From a virus (taxonomy: Duplodnaviria; Caudoviricetes), in the IMG/VR virus record IMGVR_UViG_3300033999_000083, positions 1 through 64,000 of that record: a stretch of 64,000 bases of DNA; one strand, given 5' to 3'. This document shows, one piece after another, positions 1,134 through 56,681 of this stretch. A program made the translations under genes and the position numbers. The notes under the pieces were generated by a model. It had not been told where the DNA came from, did not search any database, and saw only the letters and a program-made list of their open reading frames with translations. Numbering within the stretch: the stretch's first letter is position 1; every line of letters starts with the position of its first letter.

Positions 1134-2494
1134 TTGAATGAGTTTTTAAATAAGATTATGAAAGAATATTATTACTTATGGATGGGTAAAAAAGAAGATC
1201 CGTTCTCTATGTCTATAGCTGTAAAAATAATAGATGGTATTATCACCTCTATAACAACTAGAAATAATAACTGGAAGTTTGATCTCAGAACACTACTAAA
1301 TAAATCTTTAAAGGATGCTGTTCATATTATGTACACCTATCTTCACAGTACTAATATACTTGAACCTCCAATAATCAACTACTTAGATATAGATGAAGGT
1401 GTGTATGAAATACTAAGTTATAGATATGGATCAATACATAACTTTGTTCTAAATTATGAATGAATATTACTGCATTTGGATAAATAAAAAAGATACTGTT
1501 GAAGAAATTTCATTAGTGGTGAAACTAACTGACCAGGTTATCAAACACATAGAAGCCTTTTATTCAGATATCAAAGTATTAAATCTAAATACTGATGAAT
1601 ACTGTATAGTGGATCCAAAATGTTTATTAGACAAACGTATGGATATAGCATTAGGTATATTAGATAGGTATATTAGTAGTGAAAATCTAAATAAAAAATA
1701 TATCCTAGTTAGATCTAAAAAGATATCTAAATTTTCTTATGATAACATTATGTCAAAAACTAAAGGATTTAACAAACATAAATTATGAAAAGATATTATT
1801 ACATTAATGTACACTTAAGAGACTTTCTTGATGATACAGAAGCAATAGTTACTGTTGCTAGAGTTTGTTAAGTATAAATTTAAATATATACATAAGCTAT
1901 GGAAGAGTTTTATTGTATTTACATAGATGAACCAAATATAGGTTCTAATACAGAAGCTTTTGTGAAAATAAATCATAACACAATCGTTTCTATAAAGGAT
2001 ACATCAAGACCTAAAAAATATCAATGGGATGGATGGAAAATTAATCTTAACACTCTAATAGGTAAAACATTAGATGAAGCTTTGGACATCTTATCTGATT
2101 CCCTAAATGAAACTAAATACACTTCTGGTGAACCTTATGTCTATTATACAGTAATATCAAAAAATACATACTATAAAGTAACAATTTAAAACTCTAAAAC
2201 AAAATGGAAAAGAAGTTTCAATTCCGAGTTTCTGAGATATCTCTTAGAGACTCTTCATCAGTTGTTGTCTCAGTAGAAGACAACATTATAACAAAAGCAG
2301 TTAGTATTGCTAGTAAAAAGTGTCACTACTGGGACAATTGTCTTCCTAAAGCCAGTAATATGGTAGGAAGAAACATCAATGAAGTAGAAAAAGAAATTAA
2401 AAAATCTGTTCTACTATATCAAATGAATGGTTACACTCCTTATGTAATAAGAAGAGAAGTAAAATCTTCTGATAAATGTAATAAATATTTGTAA
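1134..2494 (+). CDS. Array of four weakly related small hypothetical proteins (1134-1463, 1456-1788, 1899-2189, 2204-2494)
   Basis: Shared pattern EYY.(I/L)W/Y ... VKI.D.II.SI ... L..LL.K.LD.A..IL; tightly packed on + strand. Confidence 0.7.
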
Positions 2495-2496
2495 TT

Positions 2497-3245
2497 ATGA
2501 AAACTTCTGAAAATAAAGTAAAAATAGAACTTGAGGGGCCAGCACTTGGCACCCTCGAGTGGTTTGAAAAGTTCATGTCTAAAAGCAAGTTTGTAATAAA
2601 AGGAAATGAAGAAGAAACCCCAAGTATTTTTTTAAGACACCTGGAAGATGACAGATTAATATGTAAGAAGAAAACAGAGAAAAGTGATGAAAGGTTCTAT
2701 AATATATCATCTAATGGATGTGCTTACATATCTCCAGAATATGAAGGAAATAAAGAAGGACTTTTTGATTTTCCTCTAACTCCTAAATGTAGAGAAGCTG
2801 TGGAAAATATGATAAATGAAGCAATGACTTTATTTGTCAATTGGTGGAAAGAATCTTAAATTAAAAGAAAATGGAAATATATTTAAATCATAAACCAACT
2901 TATGTTGGTACTTTAGATTGGTTTGAGGACTTTATGTCCGAAAGTGATTTGGTAATAAAAGAAATAGTTAATGGTATTCCTGGATTATTCTTACATCATA
3001 AAGATGATATGGGAAGAGATTGCTATCACTTTTTATGTAGGAAAGATTTAAATGGTGGATATTATGATGACTTTAACAAAACAGCAGATGGTTATATCTG
3101 TGTTTTTCCATCAACAAAACTATCTGAAAATGGACTTTTTGATTTTCCATTAAGTCCACAGTGTGAAAAAGCTGTAGATAAAATGATTTTGGAAGCAAAG
3201 AATTTATTTAAAAGATGGTGGGAAAATGATGGAGTTCCTTATTAA
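2497..3245 (+). CDS. Two tandem paralogous hypothetical proteins (2497-2859, 2871-3245)
   Basis: Shared GTL(E/D)WFE.FMS.S..VIK and GLFDFPL(T/S)P.C..AV..MI.EA..LF..WW. Confidence 0.85.
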
Positions 3246-3256
3246 GATATAAGGCA

Positions 3257-3619
3257 ATGGAAGAAATAATTAAAAAATTAGTAGAATTAGCTACTGAATA
3301 TGCAGAATTTATGGAGAGAAAACCAACCAGACGTGAAGTTGCTTTCTGGTATAGTGAAGATTACTCTGAAAAAATATCTGCATACTTTACTGATAGTAGA
3401 GAATATGTAGTTACTTTTGGAAAAGTTCATATAGCTGAGTATAAAAGTACTATTGAATTTCCTTTCAGTTATACAGTTGAAGACCTTGAAAGAGAATATG
3501 ACAGAGCTAAACTTTTCTTTGAAGAAGAAAAGGAAAGGGTTAAAAGAAAAATTCAAGAAGCTAAGGAAATTGAAATTGAGTGTTTAAAGAAACAATTAGA
3601 GGAGTTAGAAAAAAGTTAA
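3257..3619 (+). CDS. hypothetical protein, C-terminal coiled coil
   Basis: 120-aa ORF in operon orientation, E/K-rich tail. Confidence 0.7.
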   Translation: MEEIIKKLVELATEYAEFMERKPTRREVAFWYSEDYSEKISAYFTDSREYVVTFGKVHIAEYKSTIEFPFSYTVEDLEREYDRAKLFFEEEKERVKRKIQEAKEIEIECLKKQLEELEKS

Positions 3620-3686
3620 TAAAGAGTCATCTGTTGTTAGTAGGAGAATTCTTAGTAGTTCTCCTACTTTATAAAATTAAAAAAAA

Positions 3687-3902
3687 ATGAAAATAGATAA
3701 AATATTAAGTCAGTATCGTAGGGATTTCTATGCAATTTATATCTGTGAACATTGCGGATATAAAGAGGAGAAAAGTGGATATGATGATAATTACTTTCAC
3801 ACTGAAGTAATCCCAAAAATGGTATGTCCTCAATGTGGTAAAACTGCTGATAGTGATTATAGACCACTACAAACAAAATATCCTGATAATTTTGAAATTT
3901 AG
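3687..3902 (+). CDS. small zinc-ribbon protein
   Basis: CEHCG and CPQCG motifs. Confidence 0.75.
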   Translation: MKIDKILSQYRRDFYAIYICEHCGYKEEKSGYDDNYFHTEVIPKMVCPQCGKTADSDYRPLQTKYPDNFEI

Positions 3903-3928
3903 GGATAATTTCTTTAAAGATTTATATA

Positions 3929-4614
3929 ATGAAAACTTATGAACAAATTAAAGAATTTTTAGAATCTTTACTAATAGATAAAAATATTGTAGATTCTATT
4001 GATATAAATATGATAGATCAAAACAATCCTTTTGATTCTATCTTTAATTACCTTTCTAGCATAAATGGATTTCATAAGAAATTTGTTAACTCTAAAGAAG
4101 CTATGGATTATTTAACTAGGTATGATACATCTTTAGTTACTAGCTTAAATTTAATTGGAGGTTATGGATTAGGTGTATATGATATAAATGCCATAACTTT
4201 AGCTACAGTGTTATCTAACGAAAGAGGTATAAATAGTCTATATGAAGTAAAAGATCAAATAGAAGACTTCTTTAGAGTTAATAATTATTTTGAAAATTAA
4301 ATATGGAAACAGTAGAAAAGAAAAAATTAAGAATAATCCTAAGTAAACTCTTAGACAACACAAATAAAGCATTTGAAACTCTTATGTTGCATCTAAATGA
4401 GTTAAAGGACTGTAATGACTTTGGTTCTATAAACAAAAAAATTAGAATTATAAGTGAAGATTATGAAAGGTTTAAATTTTATGCAGGTAGGTTAGATAAG
4501 TTAGAAGCACTTTATAGCTTACCAAGCTCTACAAAAAGTATGCATGAAACTGTAGAAGAGTATATAGATAATCTAGGTATCTATGTTAAAGTTGTTAAAT
4601 CACACAATCACTAA
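3929..4614 (+). CDS. two hypothetical proteins (3929-4300, 4303-4614)
   Basis: Adjacent ORFs with 2-nt spacing. Confidence 0.65.
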
Positions 4615-4630
4615 ATTTTATATTAAACTT

Positions 4631-5077
4631 ATGATAGAAATAAAAGCACCAAATCCAATTTTACAGTTAGATGATCACCAGACTATTTTCTTGGCTGGGA
4701 GTATAGAAATGGGTGTAGCTGAAAATTGGCAGGATAGAGTCAAGAATCTACTAAAAGATAAAAAAGTAATATTATTAAATCCGAGACGTGATGATTGGGA
4801 TTCAACTTGGATTCAAAGTAAAGATAATCCTGAATTTGTAAAACAAGTTATGTGGGAATTAAATGCTCAAGAATTAGCAGATAAGATAATTATGTATTTT
4901 GATCCTAACACAAAATCGCCTATTAGTTTATTAGAATTGGGTTTATTTGCTAGAACTGGTAAAATGATTGTTATTTGTCCTAATGGATTTTATAGAAAAG
5001 GAAACGTTGATATTGTGTGCGAAAAATATAATGTAAGACAAATTCAAACATTAGAAGATGTGGTTAATTGCATTTAA
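4631..5077 (+). CDS. nucleoside 2-deoxyribosyltransferase-like protein
   Basis: IFLAGSI..G.A..WQ, LLNPRR, WEL, SPISLLELGL motifs; ATG 4631 is the likely start. Confidence 0.85.
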   Translation: MIEIKAPNPILQLDDHQTIFLAGSIEMGVAENWQDRVKNLLKDKKVILLNPRRDDWDSTWIQSKDNPEFVKQVMWELNAQELADKIIMYFDPNTKSPISLLELGLFARTGKMIVICPNGFYRKGNVDIVCEKYNVRQIQTLEDVVNCI

Positions 5078-5141
5078 ATATAAGTATATTAATCAAAACT
5101 ATAATTTGCTTTTAAACTTATATTTTTGATATTGCAACACA

Positions 5142-5393
5142 ATGATAAAAATTAATAGAATTATACCTCCAACCTTACAAATTTATACACCAAATGGTGA
5201 ATTATTAGGAACTGTTAATGAATATGAATTTCTGGATATTAGAGTACAAATTAAAAAGCAACAAATATCAGGTTATTATGGTATTTTTAATGGAGAAAGA
5301 ATTAACATAGATAGGAACGGAGAATTAGAAAAATATCCTAATGGTTTACTAGATACAATGACTAGGTATTACCTTGAACTATACAATGACTAG
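5142..5393 (+). CDS. hypothetical protein, paralog of 54006-54296
   Basis: NEYEFLDIRVQIKK vs NELEFLDLRCQIKK. Confidence 0.75.
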   Translation: MIKINRIIPPTLQIYTPNGELLGTVNEYEFLDIRVQIKKQQISGYYGIFNGERINIDRNGELEKYPNGLLDTMTRYYLELYND

Positions 5394-5464
5394 GTATTAC
5401 CTTGAACTATACAATGACTAGGTATTATCTTGAACTATACAATGACTAGGTATTATCTTGAACT
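5353..5464. repeat. 28-bp tandem repeat x4 (ATACAATGACTAGGTATTA[C/T]CTTGAACT)
   Basis: Four head-to-tail copies, no spacers. Confidence 0.95.
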
Positions 5465-5488
5465 TACATAATAAATTTTATTTTAATT

Positions 5489-5674
5489 ATGACAGATTAT
5501 TTTATTAAGTTGGAGGGTATAACAAAGAGAGAATTCTTTGCTATAGAAGCAATGAAAGGATTACTCTCAAATCCTGAATAAGTTAATGCTACTGATTATA
5601 AATGGGCAGCAAAAACCTCTATTGAGTATGCTGATGCTCTTTTAAAAGAATTGAAAGATGAATTACCTCAGTAA
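5489..5674 (+). pseudogene. small phage protein (G.TKRE.FA..AM.GLL...ADALL.EL type) with in-frame TAA at 5579-5581
   Basis: MTDYFIKLEGITKREFFAIEAMKGLLSNPE*VNATDYKWAAKTSIEYADALLKEL; motif continues in frame past the stop. Confidence 0.65.
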
Positions 5675-6068
5675 AGACCACTGGAATTATAGGGTAATGG
5701 CGAAGGGATACAAAAATGAAGTATATCTTGGTATATATGAGGTATATTATAAAGACGATATTCCTTCTTCATATTCTAAAGATCCAGTAACCATTGAAGG
5801 AAATAACTTATTTGAGCTTGATAAAGTCTTATCTTTAATGACAGAGTGTTTGGGAAAACCAATACTTTGGTATGGAGAGAAGTTTCCAGAAGAATATAGA
5901 AAAGGAGCTACAGATTATTTTATTTTACATAAAGAATTTGAAAAGCAAAAAGAAAAACATCCTTTTAAGTACAAACTAGAGTCTATCTGGTTTGAATTAT
6001 ACTGTCTCATTACAAATAATAAATTAATGAGATGGATTAAAAGTAAATTCAAAATCAATCAAATATAG
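5658..6068 (+). CDS. hypothetical protein
   Basis: WNYRVM...GIYEVYY pattern; 136-aa ORF. Confidence 0.7.
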   Translation: MNYLSKDHWNYRVMAKGYKNEVYLGIYEVYYKDDIPSSYSKDPVTIEGNNLFELDKVLSLMTECLGKPILWYGEKFPEEYRKGATDYFILHKEFEKQKEKHPFKYKLESIWFELYCLITNNKLMRWIKSKFKINQI

Positions 6069-6094
6069 ACAAGAAAGGCTAAACATTGATACCT

Positions 6095-6492
6095 TATAGA
6101 CTTATTCTATAGAAGATACTAATCTTGAATTGGCAAGATAGCTATTCCTTATGAATAGTTGGAGTAATCCTAGACGTACCATTTGCTCGGAGGAAGCAAT
6201 ATATAAAATTGGTGCGAATGAGTCCTCAGCAAAGATAAATCAACAAAAGGACAGGTTTAACCGACCTGCACCAGCTATAAGGAAGAATTATAGCCACAGT
6301 TTTGCAGTGAGTAAGACACTGTAGAGGGGAAAAGAGTTCATAAGTGAAATGATACCCCACTGCTATTTGAAAAAGTAGCAAGATAAGTAAGAGAGACTCA
6401 TCAACTCTTAAGCTTATTGAAAGCGCCTTGAAATGAGGATTGTATAAGTTGATTTATCCTGACCCTACTTCTAAACAAATGAAGAGGGTGCT
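6095..6492 (+). ncRNA. large, highly structured ncRNA candidate
   Basis: ORF-free, richer in GC than flanks, more than 10 hairpins plus long-range pairings (6234-6244/6448-6458; 6218-6224/6395-6401); strand inferred from flanking genes. Confidence 0.7.
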
Positions 6493-6519
6493 AATAAGAA
6501 TAATTTAATAATTAATAAT

Positions 6520-6945
6520 ATGAAAAATCTTATTGATGAATTTGTAGCTTTTTTAGAAGAAAATAATATAAAAGAACTTTATAAAAAAGCTCTTATAGAA
6601 AATGGAGTAATAAACTACTTGCATTTCTTAGAAGATAGTAAACCACGTAATTTTATATGTGGTGCATTCTCTTGGAGTAATACTCCAGAAGGATATAAAT
6701 TTTGGCAAGATGTAGATTTAAAGTGGGTTACTTTATTAAAGGAATTAGAAACTCCTATTAAAGTAGGTGATAAATGTATATTTTGGAATGATAATCCAGA
6801 GTTGGTAGTAGTTGGAAGATTAGATAAAATAAAGTTAGATAAAGACTTAGAGAATCCTAGTTTTTATCAAACTGGATATTTATTATTTCAAAATTGTGAA
6901 AAATATTCTGAAAAAAGATTAACTGAAATAGCAAATAATGTATAA
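6520..6945 (+). CDS. hypothetical protein
   Basis: AFSWSNTPEGYKFW motif, similar to motifs in the 9349 and 9810 proteins. Confidence 0.7.
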   Translation: MKNLIDEFVAFLEENNIKELYKKALIENGVINYLHFLEDSKPRNFICGAFSWSNTPEGYKFWQDVDLKWVTLLKELETPIKVGDKCIFWNDNPELVVVGRLDKIKLDKDLENPSFYQTGYLLFQNCEKYSEKRLTEIANNV

Positions 6946-7318
6946 AGTAAGTTTTGATTTTGACGGCGTATTAGACAGAGAAGATGTACAAAAATATGCT
7001 AGATCTTTAGTAGATAACGGATTTGAAGTATGGATATGTACATCAAGACTTAGGGATAAAGATTCTCCAAATAGTATGTGGAATGAAGACATATATAAAG
7101 TAGCCAATTATATAGGTATAGATAAAAATCATATTAAGTTTTGTGGGTTAGCAGATAAATATAAATTCTTTATAAAAAAAGATTTTGTATTTCATTTAGA
7201 TGATGATTTAGAAGAAATAAATTTAATAAATAAATATACTAATATTATTGGAATATATCTATATCCTTTAGATAATTGGTTAGAATCTTGTGAAAAAATT
7301 ATTAACCCTTTAAAATAA
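6938..7318 (+). CDS. HAD-superfamily phosphatase
   Basis: VSFDFDGVL motif I, TSR motif II, HLDD motif IV. Confidence 0.8.
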   Translation: MYKVSFDFDGVLDREDVQKYARSLVDNGFEVWICTSRLRDKDSPNSMWNEDIYKVANYIGIDKNHIKFCGLADKYKFFIKKDFVFHLDDDLEEINLINKYTNIIGIYLYPLDNWLESCEKIINPLK

Positions 7319-7482
7319 TTACTATGTATAGGTATTCAATTATTTATATTCCAATATGGGTAATTTTACAAGATGCTGTGAATATGTAATGGCTTCTAGT
7401 AAAATTAGAGAACCTTTAGAAGAAATGGTTAGTGTTATTAATTCGGTATCAGAATCTATTAATAAACCAATAATTTGGTCTG

Positions 7483-7800
7483 ATGATAGATTCCCTGAAG
7501 AATATAAAAAATAGTACTATGAATAAAGAAGAGTGGATAAAAGAAGAGGTCATAAATTATGACTGGAAAAATGATGGATTTGGAGATAATTCTATTGCAG
7601 AATTACTAAATAAAGGTTATGAAAGAGGATATAATGATGCTATGAAACTAATAGATCCATTAATAAAATCTCTTGAGTATATTATTGAAAAAGCATATCC
7701 AAATACTATTAAAGAAGCTATTACATTTGTAAATGATTCAAAGAATATAGCTTATAATGCTTTAAATACTTTTAAAAAGCAATATGAAGACTGGACTTAA
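7483..7800 (+). CDS. hypothetical protein
   Basis: ORF; true start probably the internal MNKEEW. Confidence 0.6.
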   Translation: MIDSLKNIKNSTMNKEEWIKEEVINYDWKNDGFGDNSIAELLNKGYERGYNDAMKLIDPLIKSLEYIIEKAYPNTIKEAITFVNDSKNIAYNALNTFKKQYEDWT

Positions 7801-7975
7801 GGATAAGAATGGCACAGAAATAATGGTTGGCGATAAGGTGCGATTTAAATGTTATGGAAGGTATTGGACTGAAACTGTATCTAAAATGAGCACAGGATAT
7901 TATCCGTTTAATCCATATATTAGAGTAGATACTGGTTTTTATATAAAACCATCTGATTGTGAAGTTGTAAAATAG
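7784..7975 (+). CDS. YopX-like protein
   Basis: TGLKDKNG.EI..GD.V signature. Confidence 0.75.
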   Translation: MKTGLKDKNGTEIMVGDKVRFKCYGRYWTETVSKMSTGYYPFNPYIRVDTGFYIKPSDCEVVK

Positions 7976-7995
7976 CGTAAATTTAAGATATTTAT

Positions 7996-8406
7996 ATGAA
8001 AGAAATTCTTAAAGTAGCAAAGGAAATACTTGATCTAAATGAAAATGCATCTTTAACTGGCACATTGATGTTAAAATTAAGAGGTATTGATTTAGGCAGA
8101 GAACCTAATGACATAGATATACTAATTAACGATTATGCTGTAAATATTAATTTTAATAAAGATTTTGAAGTAGAAATTTTAAGTAACGAATCATATAGAG
8201 AAACATCAATGAAGTACAAATACAAAGGTTTTGTTATTGATGTTATTAGTAGCAATGAAATTCCTGAAATTGTAAACGGATGGCGTTTAGGTTCGATTGA
8301 TGAATTGATGAAAGCAAAATACGAATTTAGTAAACAAGATTATGAGAGCGCGAAAAAACACTATGAGGATCTGGTAAAACTAGGTTTTAAATTTCCTGAA
8401 GAATAG
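7996..8406 (+). CDS. nucleotidyltransferase-fold protein
   Basis: LTGT.....G....REPNDIDIL (G[S/T]...DxD) motif. Confidence 0.6.
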   Translation: MKEILKVAKEILDLNENASLTGTLMLKLRGIDLGREPNDIDILINDYAVNINFNKDFEVEILSNESYRETSMKYKYKGFVIDVISSNEIPEIVNGWRLGSIDELMKAKYEFSKQDYESAKKHYEDLVKLGFKFPEE

Positions 8407-8447
8407 TAATTACTATACAATAATATATAAACTAATAATTATCTAAG

Positions 8448-9220
8448 ATGAAAGTGTATGTAGTTGAATCAGATTTCGGTGTCTATGAAGACTATAGAAG
8501 AATAATTAATGGAGTTTATGCACGTCCAGAAGTAGCTGAAATTGAAAGACAAAAAATTCAAGACTATTATCAGGAAATACTTGATAAAGGTGATCCTTCA
8601 GAAAAAATGTTGGATTGGGAAAATATGCCTGATGAAGAGTATGAAAGATTAAATGAGATGTTGGAAAATTATGAAACTGCTATTGATTATAATACTACAA
8701 CAGTAACAGAATATGATGTTATTGATTAATATATTATTATAATAAAATAGGACGTGCTTGGTATAAAAATAAATTACTTGGAAGAATTATTTCAGATAGT
8801 GACTATTTAAAATTAATAGAATTACTAAAAAGTAAATAAAATGGAAAACAAAAATTTAAAAAGAGTATATTATCCAGCATCTGATACTTATGGATGGTAT
8901 GATCCAGATACTGATACATACTATGATGATAATTATGAAGAAGAGCCTTATCAAGAGAATTATAAAGATGAAGATGATTAATATAAAAAATAACTAAAAT
9001 GAAACTATATAAATATAAAATAATATTACCCAATGGTAAAAAATTGATACAAGAAGCTAGTTATTTTGATACTAGAACTGGAGATTCAAATATATACTTT
9101 TTTAAAAAAGATCATATGGTTGCAGTAGTTCCTAATGGAAGTGCAGTAATTGAGATTGGTTATGAAGATAATAGTTTTAATCTAAGGGAGAGATATAATG
9201 ATGAACTTCCATGCGATTGA
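8448..9220 (+). CDS. small hypothetical proteins (8448-8729, ~8841-8981, 8999-9220)
   Basis: Co-oriented short ORFs with A-rich leaders. Confidence 0.55.
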
Positions 9221-12002: not shown

Positions 12003-12159
12003 TAAAATAAATTTACGAAAACAGTAGTATTAAATTAATGAGGATAGGAATAAATATGTTAGCTATTTCAAGTATATTAGCGTTTATATTTATTTTTGTA
12101 ACATTAATTAAATATATGATACATCTGGCCTAATGGTCAGTCATTTTGTTTTTAGAGTT

Positions 12160-12193
12160 AGAACTGGAGAAAATTAACATCTCCAGTTCTTTT
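12160..12193 (+). terminator. intrinsic terminator
   Basis: AGAACTGGAGA / TCTCCAGTTCT stem followed by TTT. Confidence 0.7.
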
Positions 12194-12229
12194 AAAAGAA
12201 ACTAATTAAATAATATAAAACATAAAAAG

Positions 12230-15384: not shown

Positions 15385-15458
15385 TGCGAGGTGGACTGGA
15401 GAGGTTCCAGCTCAGTCCCATAAGCTGAATGACGTAGGTTCGAGTCCTACCCTCGCAA
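15385..15458 (+). tRNA. tRNA-Met (CAT)
   Basis: Acceptor TGCGAGG/CCTCGCA; anticodon arm TCAGT-CCCATAA-GCTGA; T arm GTAGG-TTCGAGT-CCTAC; TAACTTTG box at 15343-15350. Confidence 0.9.
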
Positions 15459-15498
15459 CTACTTGTTTTATAAAGATGCTAAACTAAAATAATTAAAT

Positions 15499-16386: not shown

Positions 16387-17495
16387 ATGGACATTTATAA
16401 TCTGATAATACCTCATATTGAAAAAGAAGCATTTGGCTTTGATAGATACAGAGTAATTATATCTATAGAAAGTCTTCTTAGGGCTTTTGCAGAGTACAAC
16501 AATACTTCTTATGAGGAAGAAGTGGAAAAATTCAATAAAATTCTAAGTAATGAATATAATGTTAAAGAATTAGAACTAAATGAATTCGATGAATATGAGG
16601 AAATAAAGTAATAATTAGATACTGTGGTATCCACTCTGCCTGATAAGCAGTAGAAATGGTAATCGGTTACATGTGGGTTCAAGTCCCACCCACAGTACTC
16701 TATAGATTTATAAACTAATAGATTTTAAAATTATGGTAACAAAAATTAGATTTACTGAAAGCTCTGGAGAGTGCAAAACTGTTGGCACAATAAAAGTAGA
16801 GCATAACTTTGAAAATGAAGAAGATCTTTTGAATTTCATCCAAGACAATTGGCTTAATCTGGAAGATCAAAATGTAGTTAATATCCTTGATGTTGATATT
16901 AGCAGTAATGGTGATTTATATGTAGAATTGAAAACAATTGATGAAGATTAATTAATAAATAATTTACCAAGATGATTAAACAATATTATCGTACTAAAAA
17001 GGGTAACCCAAGAGGTCTTATCATAGCTTTAGATAAAGGTATCTATGGCTGGTCATTGTGTAGTAAGAAAGATGTTTTCAACAAAAAGGTTGGAACTTCT
17101 ATAGCTATGGGTAGAGCTCAAAAAGCAGCTTTACTTTCTGATGATGAAAGGTTCGACTATTATCAATACAGTGTTCCAAATTCTATGTGGGAACTATTTA
17201 CAGAAATTAATAAAAGAGCACATAAGTACTTTAAATGATAATTCAAGGTAAAGACTATAAAATAGAGAAGTTAGAAAATTCTGAATTCTATAATCTTAGC
17301 TTGCTATCTATTATAAATAAAGGTACAGATAAAGAAAGAGAGGAATTCAAAGTAATTAGCTATGGTATTCCTTTTGATGAATGTATCAAAAAAATAGTAG
17401 ATTATAAGTTAAGGCAAGTTGATGGTACTTATACTATAAAAGAATATGTAGATAAGTATAAAGACTTGGTAAATGAAATAAGTAATGAATTTTAA
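16387..17495 (+). CDS. four small hypothetical proteins (16387-16611, 16733-16951, 16972-17238, 17235-17495)
   Basis: ORFs; 16972 has the CSKKDVFNKKVG..IA.GRA phage motif. Confidence 0.65.
16621..16697 (+). tRNA. atypical tRNA-Ile(GAT)-like RNA lacking a canonical D arm
   Basis: Acceptor ACTGTGG/CCACAGT; CTGC-CTGATAA-GCAG anticodon arm; perfect T arm; only 8 nt where the D arm should be. Confidence 0.65.
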
Positions 17496-18380: not shown

Positions 18381-20131
18381 TTCAAAGATTCACACTCAAA
18401 TTAAATCTTACGAACAAAGACAAAAAGAAAAACTTGTAGAACTTGGTCAATCAAATAAAAGCTATAAAAATATTTTAGCTTATTTGGAGGCTGAAATCAA
18501 GCAATCTACTAAAATTTCAACATTTAACTACAAAATTAAATGTTTTAAAGATGATGGAGTATATCAACTAAATAGAGCTATAGAAGAAATCTATGGTTCT
18601 GTAAGTTTTAAGAAAGATGAAAGTCCTTCAGGAGGATCTGACTCTATTCAAACTATAGATATAACTTTAGCATCTGGAGAAAGAATTAAAACTTTGTTTG
18701 GTAAGATAGCTTTACCAGAAGCAGGAGAAGGAGCCTACATTGATATATCTTATGATAGTGCGAATGATACTTTGCATGTTGTAGGCAACTGCGAATTCAG
18801 ATTTTCAAGTATGATTGATGAGATTGTTAAAAGAGCAGAAAAACTCTTGAAAACTGATTCAATCTATAAGGATCAAGCTATTGAGTTAGATGAATCTTTT
18901 TCACCAAGAATAATGGATTTAACTTCATATACTAAAGAGTTTGTTGTTCTTAGTAGCCAAACTAAGTATGAATTACAACCATTAATGAATAGGATATTTG
19001 ATCCTGCAAAATGTAAGGCAAAAGGTATTCCACTTAAACTGGGAGTGCTCTTAGATGGCCCATACGGTTGGTAGTTTAATATTATATATAAATATTTAAC
19101 TTAAACAGCCCTTATGCGAGGTAACTCGTATTAAGAATTCTAGTGAATTGCTGGAAAATCCTTAGAGCTATATAGACTACAACATAGATAGTAATATCAA
19201 GTGTGAATGTTTAAAAACTATATAGATTGGAAAATCAGCAGCGAAGCTTCTTATAAATAAGAAGAACGTTCAACGACTATCCCTGAAATGGGAGTACACT
19301 CAAATGAGTGGAAGTACTAGACATCCTTATAGGATGAAGATATAGTCTGGTCTTTATAGAAATATAAAGAAGTTCATAAGAGAACTGCATAAGAGTAATG
19401 AACTTATGTGAACAACAACGACAGGAAAAACTTTATTAGCATTTAAACTAGCAGCAGATGCTATTAAAAACAATTGGAGTTTTATTTATCTTAAAGAACC
19501 TAGTTATTTAGCAAGAACTTTAAGATTAGCAAAAACCCTTGATCAAAATGGCAATGGTGTAATAATTTTCTTAGAGGATCTTGATCAAATAACTAGAGGA
19601 GAAAGAGATGCTGCTATGCAGGACATCTTAAATACCTTAGATGGTGGAGATACTAAGAGTATGAATGTAATCTCAATATTTACTACTAATCATCTAGAAC
19701 TAATTGAACCAACATTCTTAAGAGGAAAAAGAATTGGTTCTCTTATCTCACTTGGTTTCTTGGATAAAGAAACTGCTCTGGAATATATCACCACAACTTT
19801 TGAACGTGATGGTTACAGAGTAGATAATAATGGGATGGATAAAGTATGTAAACTTATTGAAGAAAGTAACATAGCTCCTGCTTTTATGGCAGAAATATGT
19901 GAATCTGTTAAATCTCATGTACTATATGAAGATGATGTAATTATCAAACCAGAGTATATTGAGAATGCAGTAAAATCTTATTTAAGGCAAGTTAATATTG
20001 CTAAGAAGAAAGATATGTCTGAAACAGATGAATCTCGCCTTGCTGATTCTTTAAGAAAGATTATTAATAAAGATTTAATGAAATTACTTGAAGAACAGAA
20101 ACAATTTATTGAAGAACGTTTTGGAGAATGA
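18361..20131 (+). CDS. AAA+ ATPase, spliced (exons 18361-19068 + 19421-20131)
   Basis: Joining restores Walker A LLDGPYG|TGKT; Walker B IIFLEDLD; TTNH...PTFLRGKR. Confidence 0.9.
19069..19420 (+). mobile_element. group I intron (352 nt, no ORF) in AAA ATPase Walker A
   Basis: GAATTGCTGGAAA (P), AATCAGCAGCGAAG (Q), GTTCAACGACTA (R), GAAGATATAGTCT (S); exon ends in U, intron ends in G; P1 GGT|TG with CAGCC. Confidence 0.92.
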
Positions 20132-25363: not shown

Positions 25364-26018
25364 ATGGATAAATATTACTTTTTTAAAGACGAGAGAGTAT
25401 CAATTTGGCATAGAACATATTTTACTGTAGAAGCTGATTCTATTGAAGAAGCTGTAGATAAAATAAAGTCAGATCCATATAGTTTAGATTTTGATGGTGT
25501 AGAAATAACTGATTCTGAATTTTTATATGATAGTATGGAATTACTCTCTACTAATGCAGTAGGTGGAGCTACACTAGAAGTATTTGAGGATGATGGAGAT
25601 ATGATATATAATAACTATGAATAATATAAATGAAAAGAAATTTACTAGTTCTTTAAAGTATATTAAAAAAGTAATTAGTAACATTAGTTCCTACTATGAA
25701 TTACCAGAAGAAGTTAAAAGTATAATTAGTAAAGAAGATTTCGATAATCTGAAACAAATACTAAGAAATAGGTATGAATATTGTATAAAGAAAAAGGTAA
25801 TGATTATTAAAGAAACAACTTTTTTTGTATTTGCAGAAAGTAAAGAAGAAGCTGATAAAAAAGCAATTGAAATTGTTGCAAATAATATTAAAGTTGAGTC
25901 TACTAATATAGTTCTCAGACCTAGTACAATGGAAGATGTACCTCCAAAAGAAGGTGAACCAACAATAGAACTTTACTCAACTTTAGATAGTCAAAATATT
26001 TTATACAAAAATGGATAA
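25364..26018 (+). CDS. two related hypothetical proteins (25364-25624, 25617-26018)
   Basis: Shared T.F.V.A(D/E)S.EEA..K motif. Confidence 0.7.
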
Positions 26019-29000
26019 ATATTTAATAGAATATGGTTTAGAAAATAAAGATAAAATAATTGAAATTATATACTGTAATCATTATCTAGATGCAATAGAT
26101 ATAGCTCAATCTAGGGCTATAAAGCTTTTAGATGATATTAAAGAATATAAAAACTTAAAAGAAGAAATCTATAAAACTTACAATTATAATCCTTTTACAC
26201 CGTATGCCTATTATTTATCAACTATTTTAAGTCTTATAACATACAGTGTGGAAAAAATAGACAAAGATCAATCTATAATATATTTAGTATCTAATGAAGC
26301 TAGTTTATTTGATAGTAAATTTAAAACTATATCTTTAGATAGGGCTATACAATTACTCAGTGAGTGTGACATTCTAGGATTAGATTCTGAAACTGAAGGG
26401 TTAGATCCCTATACAAAGGCTCTATTGTTACTTCAGATTGGTAATAAAGAATTTCAAGTGGTATTTGATATAGCTAGCTTTGGTGGTATAATACCTAAGA
26501 AGTTAGTTAATTTTTTAAATAACTATCCAAATACTTTTATATTACAGAATGCTAAATTTGATTTAAAATTCTTATTTAAACAAGGGGTAATACTTAAAAG
26601 AGTATTTGATACTATGCTCTGTGAAATAATTCTTACTAATGGATTAGAATATGAAGGTAGGGATTTAAAGAGTTTGGCAAAGAAATATTGTAATGTAGAA
26701 TTAGATAAATCTGTTAGAGGGGAAATTATAAGTAATGGTTTATCTAGTGCTGTAATAGAATATGGAGCTAATGATGTAAAGTATCTTCCAGAAATAAGAG
26801 AGAAACAATTAATAGAAGTTAATAAATACAATCTTAAAGGTGCAGTAGATTTAGATAATACGTTTGTGGTAGTCTTAGCTTATACTGAATATTGCGGTAT
26901 AAAGTTAGATTATGAAAAATGGAAGATAAAAGTATTAAAAAATATAGAGACTGCTGAGAAATATAAAAAAGAATTAGAAGATTATATTTATAACGATAAA
27001 AAATATGAATACTTTTCTGGAATGGTAGATATGTTCACAGGAAAGCAGGAATGTATTATCAATTGGGATTCTCCAAAACAAGTTACTAAACTTCTTAAAG
27101 AGTATGGTGTTAATACTGAAATAGTAATTAAAGGAGAAAAGAAAGAATCTATAGATTCTAAAGTTTTAGAACCTCAACAAGATCAATTTCCTATTATAAA
27201 GCCATATCTTAAATATAAAGAAATGCAAAAAGAAGTTAGTACTTATGGATATAACTGGAAAAACTATATAAATCCTATTACTGGCAGAATACATACTTCT
27301 TTTACCCAAATACTTAACACAGGGCGTATGTCATCTGGAAATAAGTATGAAAACCTTCCCAATATTCAAAACCTACCTCGAGGAGAAGATACTAGGTCTT
27401 GTTTTATAAGTGAACCAGGAAATTTACTAATTGATGCAGACTATGCAAGCCAAGAACAAATAGTCTTAGCTAACTTCTCTAAAGAACCTAATCTTTTAGA
27501 ATTTTATCATAGAGGTTTTCAAGATATGCACAGCTATGTAGCTTTTTTAATGTATAAAGACATTAGGAAATGCACTGTAGAAGAATTAACTCCTGAAAAA
27601 CTTTCATACGTTAAAGAAGAATACTCAGAGAAAAGAAGAATTGCTAAATCTGCTGGATTTGCGATGAACAAACCATTTTATTTAATTTAGGTGTAACTGA
27701 ACTTAAAAATAAAAAATTTGCCATTAACTACTAATTTATGACAAAACTTTTTATTATATTTGTGTGTAATTAAAATACATAAATATGGATAAAAATAAAA
27801 TAAATGAACTATTAGAAGATTATTCTTCTGGAATGTCTTTAAAAGACATTAAAAGTAAATACCAGACTAGTTCTGATACAATTTATAAATTAGTAGATGC
27901 TAATGGCATAAATAGAAAGAATTATAAAAATTTAGATAAATTTTATGACTTAAATAATCCTGAAACACAATATTGGCTAGGATATATATGTGCAGATGGA
28001 AATATTCAATACGATATTGTTAAAAGAATATATAAAGTATCTTTGTTTAGTAAGGAAGAAGAACCTATCAACAGATTTAAAGAGTATTTTGGAAATATGG
28101 TATGTATTCATAGAAGACCTACAGGTATCATTGAAGCATACATAAATTCTAAAAAATTATGTGAATACTTTATAAATGTTCTAAACATACTTCCTAATAA
28201 ATCTTTAATTCTAGATCCTAATTTAGAATTTACAACAAATTTTATATTAGGATATTTTGATGGAGACGGTTCTATAATGAATAGTTCTGAAACTAGAATT
28301 AGATATGAAACTAAAATAACAAGTGGTAGTAAAACCTTTATCAATAAAATATGTAAAATATTAGATAATAAGGGTATCTACTATATACTTAGAGAAAAAA
28401 GCAGTGCTTTTGACATTAGTATTGAGAGAAAAGAAGAGTCTAAAAAATTTTATAATTGAATTTATTCTGAAAAAGTTTGGTGTTTATCACGAAAATTAAA
28501 TAACTTTGTCGCTCTCTTTGGAAACTTAGAGATAAATAATCGGGAGAATTGCGGGGAAATTAATGGACAATCCGCAGCCGAACTATCTGAATAGCATAAA
28601 AGTAAGATAGGAGGTTCAACGACTAACAATTGAGGAGCTAATCCAATAATATTGACACGAGTACCCGACACCTAAGGAGAAATCTATGGTGAAGATATAG
28701 TCTGAGCTATATAGTAATATATAGAAGTAAGTATAAAGAGACTTACGATAACATAACTGAAATTATGGAGGAAATGGTAGTACTATAGCTAAAAATTGTA
28801 ACATAAGCAAAGCAGAAGGAGATTTTGTATATAATTCATATTTTGAAGCCTTCCCTAAACTCAAAGATTATTTTGATCTAATGTTTAGAAAATCAGCTTA
28901 TTCTGGATATATAGAGTATAATCATGTAACTAAAAGAAAATATTTCTTTAATAAAGAAACCAATGATTATTACAGATATAAAGATATAGTAGAAAAGAAT

Positions 29001-30397
29001 CTACTTTATGAAGAAGACAACCCAAGAGATGTTATATCTAAATATAATAGAGCTAAAAATGAGATACAACGCCTATCTCAAAACTATCCTATAATTGAAT
29101 GGGACTTTATACAGTAATGTATATCGAAAATTGGGTGAATTGCTGGAAACCTAAGTATTATTAAATATAAGGCAATCAGCAGCCAAGCTAGTGAATATCT
29201 TAATGTAACTAGAAGGTTCAGAGACTAGAGGGTGAGTAGATAAACAATAACCTCTCAAAAAGCGCCCGACAACCAATAAATTGGTTGATAATATAGTCCA
29301 ATCTACATCTAAAGATGTAGCAAGATTTTTTAAAAATTATACATTTTATGTGTTGATAATTTTATATCTTTGTATTATTAATAATTTTAAATACAAAGAA
29401 AATGGAAAAAGTAAAAACATGTAAAATTTGTAATTTGAGTGAACCAGAGGTAGAATTTTATAAGAATTCTGGTTCAAAATGTAAAAAATGTAAAAATAGA
29501 GAAGACAGCAGGAGAAGGGCTGAGAAAGCTGGTAGAGAGTATATTCCTAGAGAAAAAGTAGAAGTACCCGAAGAATATAAACTCTGTACTAAGTGTAAAA
29601 GAGTATTACCTATAGATGATTTTTATGTATTAGGGGCAACTAATAAAGACGGTACTAATAGAATATATTCAAGATGTAAAGAATGTGAAAGACAAATTGT
29701 CTTAGAGCATCCTAACAGAAAAGAATATATTGAGAAATCTAATAAAAATAAGTTAGAAAAATCTCAAGAAGACCCTGATTATAGAGATTATCTAAATGAA
29801 ATAAACAAAAAATATTATCATAGTGAAAAAGGTATAATTGCACACATGCTTTATGAGGCTAAGAAAAGAGCTGCTAAGAAGAATTTAGAGTTTGATCTTA
29901 CAGAAGAAGATATTATATTACCTACACACTGTCCTATTTTAGAAACAGAGTTTGTAAAAGGTGATAGTTCTGATTATTCTATGACATATTCTTTAGATAG
30001 AATAGATAACTCTAAGGGATATGTTAAAGGAAATGTAAGAGTAATTTCTATGTTAGCTAACTCAATGAAGAACTCAGCTACACCAGAACAACTAGAAGCA
30101 TTCTCTAGAAACATTTTAAACTACATTAAAAAATCTTAAATGATTCAAGGCTCTTCAGCAGATATAACTAAGTATGCAGGAATACTATTTATGAGAGAGA
30201 TTCTTAAAAGAGATTGGTTTATGAAAGTAAAAATAGTAAATTTTGTTCATGATGAGATACTAGTTGAAGCTCCTAAAGAGATAGCTGAAGAAGTTAAAGA
30301 TGTTTTAGTAAGTTGCATGGAAGAAGCTGGAAAGCCTTTCTGTAAGATATTACCTTTACATGCTGAAGCATTAATAGGAGATCACTGGGTTCATTAA
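26011..30397 (+). CDS. polA: family A DNA polymerase, spliced (exons 26011-27665, 28760-29090, 30143-30397; 746 aa)
   Basis: Exo LGLDSETEG, QNAKFDL; TGRMSS, DADYASQE; splicing restores AKSAGFAI|NYGG and QNYP|IQGSSAD; VHDE. Confidence 0.95.
27666..28759 (+). mobile_element. group I intron 1 of polA, LAGLIDADG ORF in loop L1
   Basis: GAATTGCGGGGAA, AATCCGCAGCCGAA, GTTCAACGACTA, GAAGATATAGTCT; IGS GTCGC (28508) pairs with exon GCGAT. Confidence 0.92.
27785..28594 (+). CDS. LAGLIDADG homing endonuclease with in-frame TGA (Trp) at 28457
   Basis: YWLGYICADG, FILGYFDGDG; readthrough gives KKFYN(W)IYSEKVWCLSRK, a typical C-terminal motif. Confidence 0.85.
29091..30142 (+). mobile_element. group I intron 2 of polA, HNH-type ORF after the core
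   Basis: GAATTGCTGGAAA, AATCAGCAGCCAAG, GTTCAGAGACTA, ATAATATAGTCC; P1 TCCT/GGGA. Confidence 0.92.
29402..30139 (+). CDS. His-Me finger (HNH-like) homing endonuclease with Zn ribbons
   Basis: Multiple CxxC; CPIL, SLDRIDNSKGYVKGNVRVIS..AN.MK. Confidence 0.85.
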   Translation: MEKVKTCKICNLSEPEVEFYKNSGSKCKKCKNREDSRRRAEKAGREYIPREKVEVPEEYKLCTKCKRVLPIDDFYVLGATNKDGTNRIYSRCKECERQIVLEHPNRKEYIEKSNKNKLEKSQEDPDYRDYLNEINKKYYHSEKGIIAHMLYEAKKRAAKKNLEFDLTEEDIILPTHCPILETEFVKGDSSDYSMTYSLDRIDNSKGYVKGNVRVISMLANSMKNSATPEQLEAFSRNILNYIKKS

Positions 30398-45800: not shown

Positions 45801-48800
45801 TGGAAGATTATTTTAAACATGATGAACTAGCCTATGATGTTTGGAAAGACAAGTATAGACAAGAAGGAGAAAGTTTAGAACAATTTTTTGAAAGACTGGA
45901 AAAAGGGTTTGATAGATCTTTTAGTTATGATAGAAATCTATCAGAGTATGGAAAAAAGAGGCTAAACAATCCATATAGAGAAACCTTACATACTTTATTT
46001 AAAGATTTTAAATATATAATTCCTGGAGGCTCTGTACTATATGGAATAGGTACTGATAAGCCTGTAAGCCTTAGTAATTGCTATGTTCTTAGCACTGAAG
46101 ATTCTATATCAGAAATCTTTGATACAGCTAAATATATGGCTAATATCTATAAAAGAAGAGGAGGAGTTGGAGTAGACATTTCAGTTTTAAGACCTAAAGG
46201 CGCTTCTGTTAATAATGCTGCTAAAACTACTACTGGGATTATACCATTTATGGATTTATTTAGTAATGTAACCAATACAATTGGGCAGAGTGGAAGACGT
46301 AAAACAGATGAAACATTTTTTAATATTGAAAATATACAGAGTAAATATTATGGACGAACAATTTTTAATGGAATGCTTAGAGAAAGGACTAAGTACTAGA
46401 CAAATAGAAGCTCTTCCTGGAGTTAATATAAAGAGAAGTGCTATAAGTTATTGAATTCATAAATATGGTTTAGAAAATGATATGAAATATAAAAAACCTA
46501 TTTACAATGAAAATTACTTTAGTACTATTGACACTAAGGAAAAAGCTTATATTTTAGGATACACTTTAGCAGATGGGTATATTAGTAATTCTGATTTAGT
46601 TTATGGATGTGCTATTGCAGATAAAGAAATACTAGACTTTATAGCCTCAGAAATAGGAGGACAAGTAAGAACTTATACCAAGTTAAATAGAGAATCTAGA
46701 ACATTTCCTAATGCAAAATTGAGTATAGGTAATAGAAAAATAGTAGAAGATATAAATAGGTTATGTAATTCTAAAGAGAATAAAACATTTCCTAGAATAA
46801 GAAAAGATTTACAACCATATATGCTATTAGGTTTTTTTGATGGAGATGGATGTTTAACATTCGGACATAGAAAAGATCGTAATAGATTATGGTATAAAAT
46901 ATGTTTTACAGGTTCTTATAAACTATTATATGCTATACAAAAATTACTTGAAAAGAATAAAGTTGTATCAAGCCTTCACCCTAAAGGTGATGAAAATTGT
47001 TATGTCCTAGAAATGTCATCGAAAGATTCAGTATTAAGAATTTTAAAAGCCATGTATGGTAAAGAAGATTTAATTGTACTGAAAAGAAAATATAATAAAT
47101 ACAATGCGCTGCGTCTTGAATTGGGAGAATTCGGTGAAACTACTATAAATAGTACAATACCGAGCCGAGCTTCAGACCATTCTGAAGAAGGTGTAGAGAC
47201 TACTGGAGGGAAAGAGGATTCCCTTAATAACCAGCTAGAGAACCCAAGTCTTACTATTAAGTAAGATAAGATATAGTCCAAATAAAGGGGCGCATTAATG
47301 ATAACCCTAGATATCAGACATCCTGATTCTCCAGATTTTGCTATTTGTAAAAGGGATTTAACTAAAATAACTGGTGCTAATATATCTTTAAAAGTATCTA
47401 AAGATTTTATATATGCTGTAGAAGGTAATAAAGATTACCTATTAAGATGGCCTGTAGATATAAATATAGATGATATAGATTTAAGTAAATTAGAATATGA
47501 TAAACTATATGAAGTATCTACTAAGAGATATATCAAGAAAATAAAAGCTAAAGAATTATGGGATACTATAATAGAATCTAATTGGCAGTCGGCTGAACCA
47601 GGAATACTTTTCTGGGATAACATTGTAGATTATGATTTAGCTAGTGTATATCCAGAGTATAAACCTATATCAACAAATCCTTGCGGTAGATTTTGCTGCA
47701 AGTAAAAAAATTCGAGAATTGCTGGAAACTTGGGATAGTTATACAACTACAACAAAACTAGAAATGGTATTTGTGAATGTTTGAAAATAGTATAACGTTA
47801 AGTAATCAGCAGCCGAGCTCCTAAGTTATTTATAATATGGAGAAGGTTCACAGACTATGTACGAATCAAAATTAATTTATGAAAACATTTAAAGAAAGGG
47901 CAGAAGAATTAGCCCTATCATGTACAAGAGTTAAAAATAATAATGTTTATGAAACTCTTGCAAAAGAATTTGGAATATGTAAAAGGACAGCTGGAGATAG
48001 GTTTAAGAGCCTATTTGGAATGCCTGTTAGTGAGTTTATTTCTAATAATCTTATTCCTTCAGAAGAAAAGGTAATTGATTGTTTAGTTCAATCAGAAACT
48101 TATAAAGAGTTTTATGATTTAACTGGAATAAATGATAGTGTAAGATTAGCTAATACATTAAAAAAATATTTTGGTACATCAGATTACTATAAATTAAAAG
48201 TATTAGCTTTATCTAAAATACCAAGTAAGAAATATAATCCAACTCCTGAAGATAATGAAGCTATTTTAGTTTCTCAAATGTTAGGAGATGGTTCTATAGA
48301 AAGAGAAAATTCTTTTAAAATAGAACATGGTTATAAACAGTATGAATACTTAAAATTTAAGGTCTCATTATTTAATAAAGCTTACCCTCAAACAAATGGT
48401 TTAGAGAAAATAAGAAAGAGAATATCTAAAGATAATTATGAATCTTATGTTTATAGAACTGGAGAGGTTTTACATAAACAATTATCAAGATTACTACATT
48501 TATCTAAAAAAGATTTAGTAAGTAAATTAACACCTTTTGGAGTTATGCTTTATTTTCTGGATGATGGATATTTTTCTATAAGTAAGGGTAAATATATTAC
48601 TTGGGAATTAGGTTTTAGCACTATAAATACAGAGTTACAAGAAGCTTTGTTTGAGTACTTTAAAACGTATGGATATACTTTTAACATCACTCCTAAAGCT
48701 ATAATCTTACAAAGTAAACCCACTATAATTAAGTTCATAAAAGATTTCTTAGAACCTTTTAAAGATATTATTCCAAAAAGTATGTATTATAAATTTAATT

Positions 48801-56199: not shown

Positions 56200-56319
56200 T
56201 AATATATTGTAAAATCAATGTAAAGGCTATACAAATACATTAGGATCAATTCAAAAGTTGGTTATGAAGAAGATGTTAACTGAAATTTTTTAAAGTCTTA
56301 GAAAGGATATTTAAAAATA

Positions 56320-56539
56320 GGAGAGATGGCGGAATTGGTTAGACGCATAGAGATGGTAAGATTGGTAGAGACCGTGTTTTGCGACATGGAATAATACATA
56401 AACCCATGTGAGTTAGTGAATTGAAGGCTTTTGTCAAAAACACATAACAAGCATGACTGTTCAATTCAGTCCTAGAAACTGGAAGCTGACCTCCATTTCA
56501 AAATCCAATCATGCAGGTTCAAATCCTGCTCTCTCCCCA
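56320..56539 (+). ncRNA. tRNA-like RNA with ~150-nt structured insert replacing the anticodon arm
   Basis: Acceptor GGAGAGA/TCTCTCC + CCA; D arm GCG-GAATTGGTTAGA-CGC; T arm GCAGG-TTCAAAT-CCTGC; internal helices and pseudoknots. Confidence 0.8.
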
Positions 56540-56595
56540 ATTAAAATAGTTAAAAACTATTTTGTTTCCATTTTATTTTTGTTTGTTTGTTAGAA

Positions 56596-56681
56596 AAAGG
56601 GAATAGTCTGTATAGATTATTCCCTTTATTTTTTTAATAAAAAAGCCGAGTACAGAAATTACTGTATTCGGCTTATTTTTT
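56596..56681. terminator. two hairpin terminators at the convergence of the + and - modules
   Basis: AAAGGGAATAGTCT/AGATTATTCCCTTT + T run; AAGCCGAGTACAG/CTGTATTCGGCTT flanked by A and T runs. Confidence 0.85.

Follow-up and report, generated by a model that had tools for sequence, protein, structure and literature searches.

A 451-nt gap (6069-6519) in the genome of a wastewater and sludge phage that is large (~175 kb) and very novel raises the question of whether it is a passive intergenic spacer or encodes a structured RNA. The window analysed here is the first 64 kb (64,000 nt) of the phage's IMG/VR virus record, which is 93,401 bp long and rated 53% complete. A sequence-only reading had placed an ornate non-coding RNA with several long-range pseudoknots at 6095-6492 and assigned it either to a class such as ROOL and GOLLD or to a new one. 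Our analysis supports a large, ornate, non-coding and phage-borne RNA as a candidate, with altered boundaries and without the pseudoknots. We consider it likely that the gap encodes a stable plus-strand non-coding RNA of ~390 nt, belonging to an undescribed class and carried in a variable accessory block, which would act in trans as a scaffold or decoy or by self-assembly.

Genomic context

The gap lies between two plus-strand ORFs, so that the RNA is on the same strand as both neighbouring genes. Its GC content is 0.375-0.385, compared with ~0.26 on either side. The longest ORFs within it are 57 aa (plus strand) and 51 aa (minus strand), which bears out the earlier description of the region as free of ORFs.

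5658-6068, plus strand: upstream ORF, 136 aa, phrog_21321 (E 2.7e-07), no Pfam match
6069-6464, plus strand: candidate RNA, ~390 nt, spanned by RNA-library contigs; putative mature or stable form
6520-6945, plus strand: downstream ORF, 141 aa; the gene occurs without the RNA in the relative L016

ORFs within ~2 kb of the RNA are at most 164 aa long, and no reverse transcriptase, homing endonuclease or other nuclease is found nearby. A Pfam search of ten neighbour proteins gave a single match above the curated cut-off, Nuc_deoxyri_tr2, and no RNA-related domain. This match (E 2e-34) is a nucleoside 2-deoxyribosyltransferase-like protein encoded at 4583-5077, 1 kb upstream of the RNA and in the same accessory block; its homologues are found in jumbo phages of Caulobacter, Ralstonia and Xanthomonas.

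On the plus strand, the flanks of the RNA contain no promoter with better than 9/12 matches, and no intrinsic terminator was called there, so that an independent transcription unit is only a possibility. A k-mer enrichment search had suggested ATATAGWC as a promoter motif, which we rejected: it occurs 12 times against 12.3 expected by chance, mostly in group I intron cores. The element has no iterons or tandem repeats, its sole direct repeat being a 13-nt pair of 85% identity, 245 nt apart.

Predicted fold of the RNA

Folding of the plus strand of the gap gives an MFE of -116.6 kcal/mol (z -5.20), with none of 100 dinucleotide shuffles as good; the minus strand, with a z of -2.66, is also better than its shuffles. 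For the span 6069-6464 the MFE is -106.0 kcal/mol, with z values of -5.24 on the plus strand and -2.81 on the minus strand. As a within-genome control, 19 of the 30 ORF-free gaps of at least 150 nt in the 93-kb contig were folded on both strands with 25 shuffles, and the gap 6069-6519 has the lowest plus-strand z of this set (-6.34; minus strand -2.99). The fold model contains 118 pairs, 11 of them G.U, and most of its helices have pair probabilities of 0.85-1.0. It consists of a short leader and two domains, followed by a separate hairpin in the fold of the full gap.

6069-6098, plus strand: 5' leader with one weak 4-bp hairpin, 6075-6078/6092-6095; z -0.54, like shuffles
6099-6224, plus strand: Domain I, 9-bp closing helix 6099-6107/6216-6224 and multi-way junction
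6122-6139, 6140-6160, 6161-6170 (GUAA loop) and 6176-6215, plus strand: Domain I hairpins in the MFE
6226-6462, plus strand: Domain II, closing helix of 4+11 bp (6226-6229/6459-6462 and 6234-6244/6448-6458) and seven-hairpin junction
6249-6272, 6274-6294, 6301-6325, 6326-6358, 6361-6380 (GAAA loop), 6382-6418 and 6426-6438, plus strand: Domain II hairpins in the MFE
6234-6244, plus strand: 5' strand of the 11-bp helix, partner 6448-6458; nested closing helix, pair probability 1.0
6448-6458, plus strand: 3' strand of the 11-bp helix, partner 6234-6244
6462-6489, plus strand: hairpin ACCCUACUUC...GAAGAGGGU in the MFE of the 451-nt gap; no U-tract after it, not called as an intrinsic terminator

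Both domains are significant when folded alone. Domain I has a z of -3.23 on the plus strand (2/200 shuffles as good) and -1.52 on the minus strand, with helix pair probabilities of 0.8-0.97 except for a weak hairpin at 6110-6121. Domain II reaches z -6.31 on the plus strand, with 0/100 shuffles as good, and -4.51 on the minus strand; its pair probabilities are 0.85-1.0, falling to 0.64 for the 2-bp helix 6249-6250/6271-6272.

All 14 complementary pairs listed in the sequence-only reading are found at the places it gave. Eight of its ten hairpins are paired in the MFE of 6069-6464 and a ninth, ACCCT/AGGGT, in the MFE of the 451-nt gap, while TGGTGC/GCACCA is unused, the partner of TGGTGC in the MFE being GTACCA. 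The long-range complements fared differently. That between 6234-6244 and 6448-6458 is real, and its length of 11 bp is attained by only 2/200 dinucleotide shuffles; it is nested, closing Domain II, and forms no pseudoknot. The other three (ATGAGTC/GACTCAT, TTCCTTAT/ATAAGGAA and AAGAGTT/AACTCTT), on which the claim of several long-range pseudoknots had partly been built, all overlap bases of nested helices. They are 7-8 nt long, a length common in shuffles. Long-range 7-mers as a whole class show a mild excess (13 versus 4.9 +/- 3.1 in shuffles), with 5 of the 13 inside the 11-mer. The three shorter complements are chance-level alternatives that compete with the nested helices.

Presence in RNA libraries

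A word index of public sequencing runs returned 20 runs (11 studies) containing the RNA stretch. Six of these runs are RNA libraries, made from activated sludge, sludge and river samples; the DNA runs are metagenomes of wastewater, digesters, bioreactors and the subsurface. One RNA run from each of four studies (X15, X17, X19 and X20) was compared with positions 4500-8500 at 85% likeness. The data are assembled contigs, from which strand, true ends and expression level cannot be read, and an RNA library may also contain DNA.

With this limit, the contigs agree with the transcript expected from the earlier proposal: all four runs have contigs on 6069-6464, and all 13 pieces listed, of 25, fall there. 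X17 has contigs at 6069-6172 and 6143-6464, while X19 covers 6255-6438 and X20 covers 6217-6437. In X15 there are many short contigs, which start at 6073 or 6101 and reach 6455, and a loose end of adapter lies at 6459. The word depth of single X15 contigs is 709-1,108, and the sum at one position is as high as 2,773. Adapter sequence in this run abuts 6101, 6222, 6286 and 6459, which indicates that library inserts ended at these positions. One 122-nt contig with adapter at both ends (6101-6222, depth 709) corresponds nearly exactly to Domain I.

The 3' stops lie at 6438 and 6437 in X19 and X20, two separate studies, and at 6455-6464 in X15 and X17, whereas the DNA assemblies continue. No loose end other than adapter is present at these stops, and we regard their being shared as a weak hint. 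The listed RNA-library pieces all end at or before 6464, 56 nt ahead of the downstream start codon. None of the four RNA runs has depth in any bin of 4500-5973 or 6510-8500; this is no evidence of silence there, and it does not count as support since the runs were chosen for the RNA stretch. At the other end, one X15 contig of depth 40.5 (versus 709) joins 6073 to 167 nt unlike the window, so that the RNA also occurs in a second upstream context. No joints or spliced forms were seen in the RNA-run contigs.

These contigs require the boundaries first proposed, 6095-6492, to be shifted to 6069-6464. The ACCCT/AGGGT hairpin at 6462-6489 then falls outside this span, beyond the last base reached by the contigs (ends 6455-6464). 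The segment 6460-6519 has a z of -3.67, and the hairpin is possibly a processing or termination signal.

Natural variation

Across the DNA relatives and the RNA-run contigs, all of them near-identical copies, 11 positions vary. Eight are simple substitutions, four at unpaired bases and four in stems, where they convert G.U to A-U (6141 and 6382) or C-G to U.G (6147 and 6188). None of the eight breaks a plus-strand pair, against a mean of 2.75 (P = 0.015) when the same kinds of substitution (five G>A and three C>U) are placed at random, in a test based on the consensus letters of contigs, of which two have a depth of 2.5, and on a fold that was itself predicted from the reference. Without the two depth-2.5 variants P is 0.039, and the same test on the minus-strand fold gives one break (P = 0.29). 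All variant haplotypes fold to within ~2 kcal/mol of the reference; the cluster at 6184/6185/6189 shifts the register of the hairpin 6183-6199, which still forms. The variants give modest support to selection on the plus-strand structure, which is distinct from covariation. It is the asymmetry of the fold together with this test that assigns the RNA to the plus strand, as contigs cannot show strand.

Two further arguments from variation were rejected. C6295U and G6351A, found together in one X20 contig, could be a compensatory tertiary pair; only 2 bp are possible there, and the depth is 2.5. Conservation among close relatives says nothing of constraint on the RNA, as 6142-7009 (868 nt) shows zero differences including coding sequence.

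An ATG-initiated ORF of 57 aa at 6151-6324 on the plus strand would be the basis for reading the element as the mRNA of a small protein. We judge this extremely improbable. A variant in X17, at depth 25, carries a 1-nt deletion at 6189 that breaks this ORF, the sole sizeable one, and so argues against coding. The start codon lies within a predicted 8-bp stem, and by eye no Shine-Dalgarno-like sequence precedes it.

The same data bear on whether the structure belongs to the DNA, as an origin, a recombination or packaging site, or to the remnant of a decayed gene, without any function as RNA. The many inverted repeats and a minus strand that also beats its shuffles (z -2.66 to -2.99) would fit such an element, as would its dispensability in relatives and the want of homologues that could prove constraint. 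However, the plus strand folds far better than the minus strand, 11 G.U pairs become mismatches on the other strand, and the substitutions spare the pairs of the plus strand only. Contigs of high word depth in RNA libraries from four studies, and an element free of iterons and tandem repeats, also argue against this explanation, which we hold to be quite unlikely.

Comparison with known RNA families

The element is ORF-free, phage-borne, present in RNA libraries and significantly structured on one strand, properties that define a kind of RNA and not a homology family. In Rfam 15, a scan of the whole window gave no match to the RNA region at gathering score, and a permissive local scan of 5950-6650 at E <= 10 returned only three junk matches with E values of 4-5; of the two class assignments originally offered, this favours the new class. 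As a positive control, the same permissive mode picks up group I sequences at 19086-19369 (81.9 bits) and at 47665-47867 (35.9 bits). Membership in ROOL or GOLLD is not supported: neither the ROOL model nor the GOLLD model, which covers the conserved 3' region, matches at gathering score or at E <= 10. No riboswitch or leader family in Rfam matches.

Several established types of RNA were considered and rejected. A group II intron or retron has neither an Rfam match nor an adjacent reverse transcriptase. For a tmRNA or tRNA-like element, ARAGORN finds one tRNA in the window (15385-15459) and no tmRNA, and Rfam has no tmRNA or tRNA match in the gap. The tandem repeats of ~34-36 nt of a ToxI-like type III toxin-antitoxin RNA are absent. 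A guide RNA of IscB or TnpB (HEARO or omega RNA) is opposed by neighbours of 136 and 141 aa without a RuvC-type nuclease and by the lack of a HEARO match. As for an antisense RNA against the phage itself, the longest complement in the remainder of the 93-kb contig is 13 nt, with 12-19 nt in shuffles.

A selfish or catalytic RNA, that is, a degenerate or novel self-splicing intron or a mobile element bearing a ribozyme, deserves separate mention, as group I introns (at least three, plus a partial match) are already present in the phage. The RNA is present or absent between near-identical genomes and occurs in a second upstream context, and its GUAA and GAAA loops are of the GNRA type, which is typical of large ribozymes. 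Nevertheless, at E <= 10 neither the introns of group I and group II nor the small ribozymes are matched, including the P3-P8 core of the group I model Intron_gpI, in accordance with the earlier remark that no core motifs of group I or II are visible; the permissive mode does detect a 35.9-bit partial intron elsewhere in the same phage. Nor does the RNA split a gene: the flanking ORFs are separate genes, in different PHROG families, rather than halves of one, and the downstream gene stands alone in L016. With no joints or spliced forms in the RNA contigs, and no homing endonuclease or reverse transcriptase nearby, we consider an origin of this sort very unlikely.

Distribution among relatives

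The RNA was found in only two other IMG/VR contigs, with 449/451 bases identical. Both contigs are identical to the window over 6142-7009, so that the RNA and the downstream gene share a zero-difference block. Searches with blastn found nothing in 50,697 phage records or 72,556 plasmids, and an exact 20-mer retrieved only the two known contigs in IMG/VR and none of 185,579 species genomes. Scans with the flanking proteins over IMG/VR and JGI metagenomes found distant flank homologues without a comparable gap.

Covariance models R1 and R2, one per domain and each built from a single sequence, were run over several genome sets, which are samples. Together they gave no match in 182,619 bases of collected loci or in the whole records of five relatives, including a complete 178-kb genome, and over three MAGs the best E value was 7, with no credible match. 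For R2, the best per-genome E value over 151 + 151 Bacteroidota genomes was 0.34, as expected by chance, and three further records, a set that did not include L020 or L016, gave no match. A diverged homologue was not found in the collections searched, which is weaker than absent. So far, the RNA is confined to one phage species-level group.

A literature search found no description of this RNA. An IMG/VR 3.0 survey of 2023 filtered for motifs of 29-151 nt, intergenic pairs and bit scores of 20-200 (PMC10690425); by these filters, an RNA of ~390 nt would have been excluded.

The metagenome contig L016 is 99.6% identical to the window from 6580 onward and lacks the RNA. Its copy of the downstream gene has its own start and is preceded by an ORF other than the upstream one of the window and by a classic terminator. 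In this contig, ~0.4 kb at 2595-3000 (a 101-aa ORF and the terminator) replaces the 5.4-kb block of small genes at 1157-6579 in the window. The region 1157-6579 is a hypervariable accessory island. As the downstream gene is intact without it, the RNA is not an obligatory leader. The complete 178-kb relative (L034, 178,320 bp, IMG/VR) lacks the RNA and both flanking genes, and from these two genomes we conclude that the RNA is dispensable.

This comparison weighs on the proposal that the RNA is a stable processed 5' leader or spacer of an early operon, acting in cis on the 141-aa gene, or a nuclease-resistant decay fragment. The RNA does share its strand with both neighbours, no plus-strand intrinsic terminator is called between it and the next gene, and in the closest relative it forms one zero-difference block with that gene; the contig of depth 40.5 that continues upstream of 6073 resembles a precursor. 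Yet L016 has the gene, 99.6% identical and provided with its own start, but not the RNA, and the listed RNA-library pieces stop at least 56 nt short of the start codon. A passive spacer would have no need of 118 pairs, an elevated GC content or substitutions that leave the pairing intact, and no riboswitch or leader family matches. We therefore regard this proposal as unlikely.

Proposed role and relation to known RNAs

Under the preferred reading, a stable trans-acting RNA, transcription would proceed rightward from a start near 6069-6073, or the RNA would be cut from a longer early transcript, with its 3' end trimmed to the base of the helix that closes Domain II, at ~6459-6464. The compact fold would allow the RNA to accumulate far above the phage mRNAs. 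It may then bind and sequester a host or phage protein in trans, in host takeover or counter-defence, or assemble with its own copies, as ROOL and GOLLD do. Action in trans is favoured because there is no long complement elsewhere in the contig, no dependence in cis and no signature of an intron or ribozyme. By analogy with such RNAs, we put forward a high-copy scaffold or decoy working in trans, or self-assembly, with low confidence. That a swappable accessory block would suit a role in host takeover or counter-defence is conjecture.

In a more ambitious version, the RNA would be the first known of a class of ornate phage RNAs with rRNA-like abundance in wastewater communities. It would be an RNA-only device, either a self-assembling particle or a high-copy decoy that disarms a host defence or RNA-binding factor, encoded in a swappable accessory island of a crAss-related giant phage of Bacteroidota. 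We see this version as possible but doubtful; if true, the RNA would be the first RNA-based 'moron' of such size for host takeover or counter-defence.

To our knowledge, large structured RNAs without a known function, such as ROOL, GOLLD, OLE and raiA, are rare, and each new class widens the known capabilities of RNA. Cryo-EM has shown that such large RNAs can form RNA-only cages. A cofold estimate for two copies of the present RNA is -219.6 kcal/mol versus 2 x -106.0 kcal/mol, a figure that is uninformative on multimers. Stable and abundant RNAs of phages and bacteria include phi29 pRNA, tmRNA, RNase P RNA and 6S RNA. These are structured and trans-acting, as proposed for the present RNA, but none of them matches at E <= 10.

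Like ROOL and GOLLD, the RNA is phage-borne, ORF-free, elaborately folded, non-essential and patchily distributed. Unlike them, it is only ~390 nt long, has no Rfam match to either and is not beside a tRNA island, the nearest tRNAs being 9-10 kb away. ROOL is reportedly as abundant as 16S rRNA and GOLLD increases during lysis, with sizes of 659 nt for ROOL env-120 and more than 800 nt for many GOLLDs (PMC12286853). Phage K (Kayvirus) has two abundant intergenic lncRNAs, lnc001 and lnc002, which the authors of the report on them liken to ROOL and GOLLD, and whose table coordinates correspond to ~635 and ~1,154 nt (PMC9241854). Like the present RNA, they are abundant, intergenic and non-coding and come from a large virulent phage whose genome is split by introns, but they differ in size and phage lineage, and blastn against the 50,697 phage records shows no similarity.

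Our best reading is that the RNA is analogous, not homologous, to ROOL, GOLLD and the phage K lncRNAs. The kind, an abundant large phage non-coding RNA, is known; the RNA itself belongs to no known family. We see in it a genuine, interesting candidate for a new class of RNA, with more support from expression than the sequence-only reading had called for. At ~390 nt it is compact enough for cryo-EM and in vitro study, its two domains are cleanly delimited, and near-identical genomes with and without it amount to a natural knockout.

The phage, its host and its introns

The nearest relatives of the phage polymerase, at ~40% identity, are in crAss-like phages and a Leptolyngbya phage. For the thymidylate synthase they are 51-53% identical and lie in contigs of MAGs labelled Flavobacterium and Bacteroides. 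From these sequence affinities, the host may be a Bacteroidota bacterium, which is a weak inference. One of the contigs, L040 (163,048 bp, in a MAG labelled Bacteroides, thymidylate synthase 51% identical), may be a related phage mis-binned into the MAG. The complete relative L034, rated 100% complete, has a polymerase 55% identical to that of the present phage.

The plus-strand block holds a replication and nucleotide-metabolism module. Ten large minus-strand ORFs of 281-1,167 aa, at 62590-63834 and in the 64-93 kb part of the record, are all (10/10) without a PHROG match at E <= 1e-5, and the module encoded there, presumably the structural one, is very novel.

The phage carries at least three group I introns, scoring 80-103 bits, and one partial match. 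Those at 19086-19369, 28487-28724 and 29081-29320 resemble the RNA in being GC-enriched and structured (240-280 nt) with GNRA-type loops; they differ from it in these scores, whereas the RNA is unmatched, interrupts no gene and shows no joints. The third intron, 19086-19369 on the plus strand (Intron_gpI, 81.9 bits, E 3e-21), appeared in the permissive scan only and was missed by the whole-window scan at gathering score. Around the other two, a Pol I-type DNA polymerase is in apparent pieces at 26011-27690, 27785-28459 and 29402-30139. Of these pieces, 27785-28459 and 29402-30139 appear to be polymerase exons and are candidates for such; in the relative L014 the polymerase is one unbroken ORF of 748 aa. 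The partial group I match at 47665-47867 (35.9 bits) is directly followed by a LAGLIDADG homing-endonuclease ORF at 47879-48826 and the ORF of the ribonucleotide reductase (RNR) large subunit at 49123-50412; probably the RNR gene here contains an intron that carries an endonuclease.

The tRNA at 15385-15459 is reported by ARAGORN as 'tRNA-???', with an odd anticodon loop ('cc'), and a second one at 16621-16697 scores 35.4 bits in Rfam and is not called by ARAGORN. Two other gaps of the window also stand out in folding. A 570-nt gap at 56200-56769, where genes switch from the plus to the minus strand, has z values of -5.59 and -4.22 on its two strands, with only weak sRNA- or terminator-like Rfam matches at 56581-56759, and could act as a terminator in both directions or be the region of an origin. 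The 227-nt ORF-free gap at 12003-12229, with z values of -5.24 on the plus strand and -3.09 on the minus strand, is a candidate structured element.
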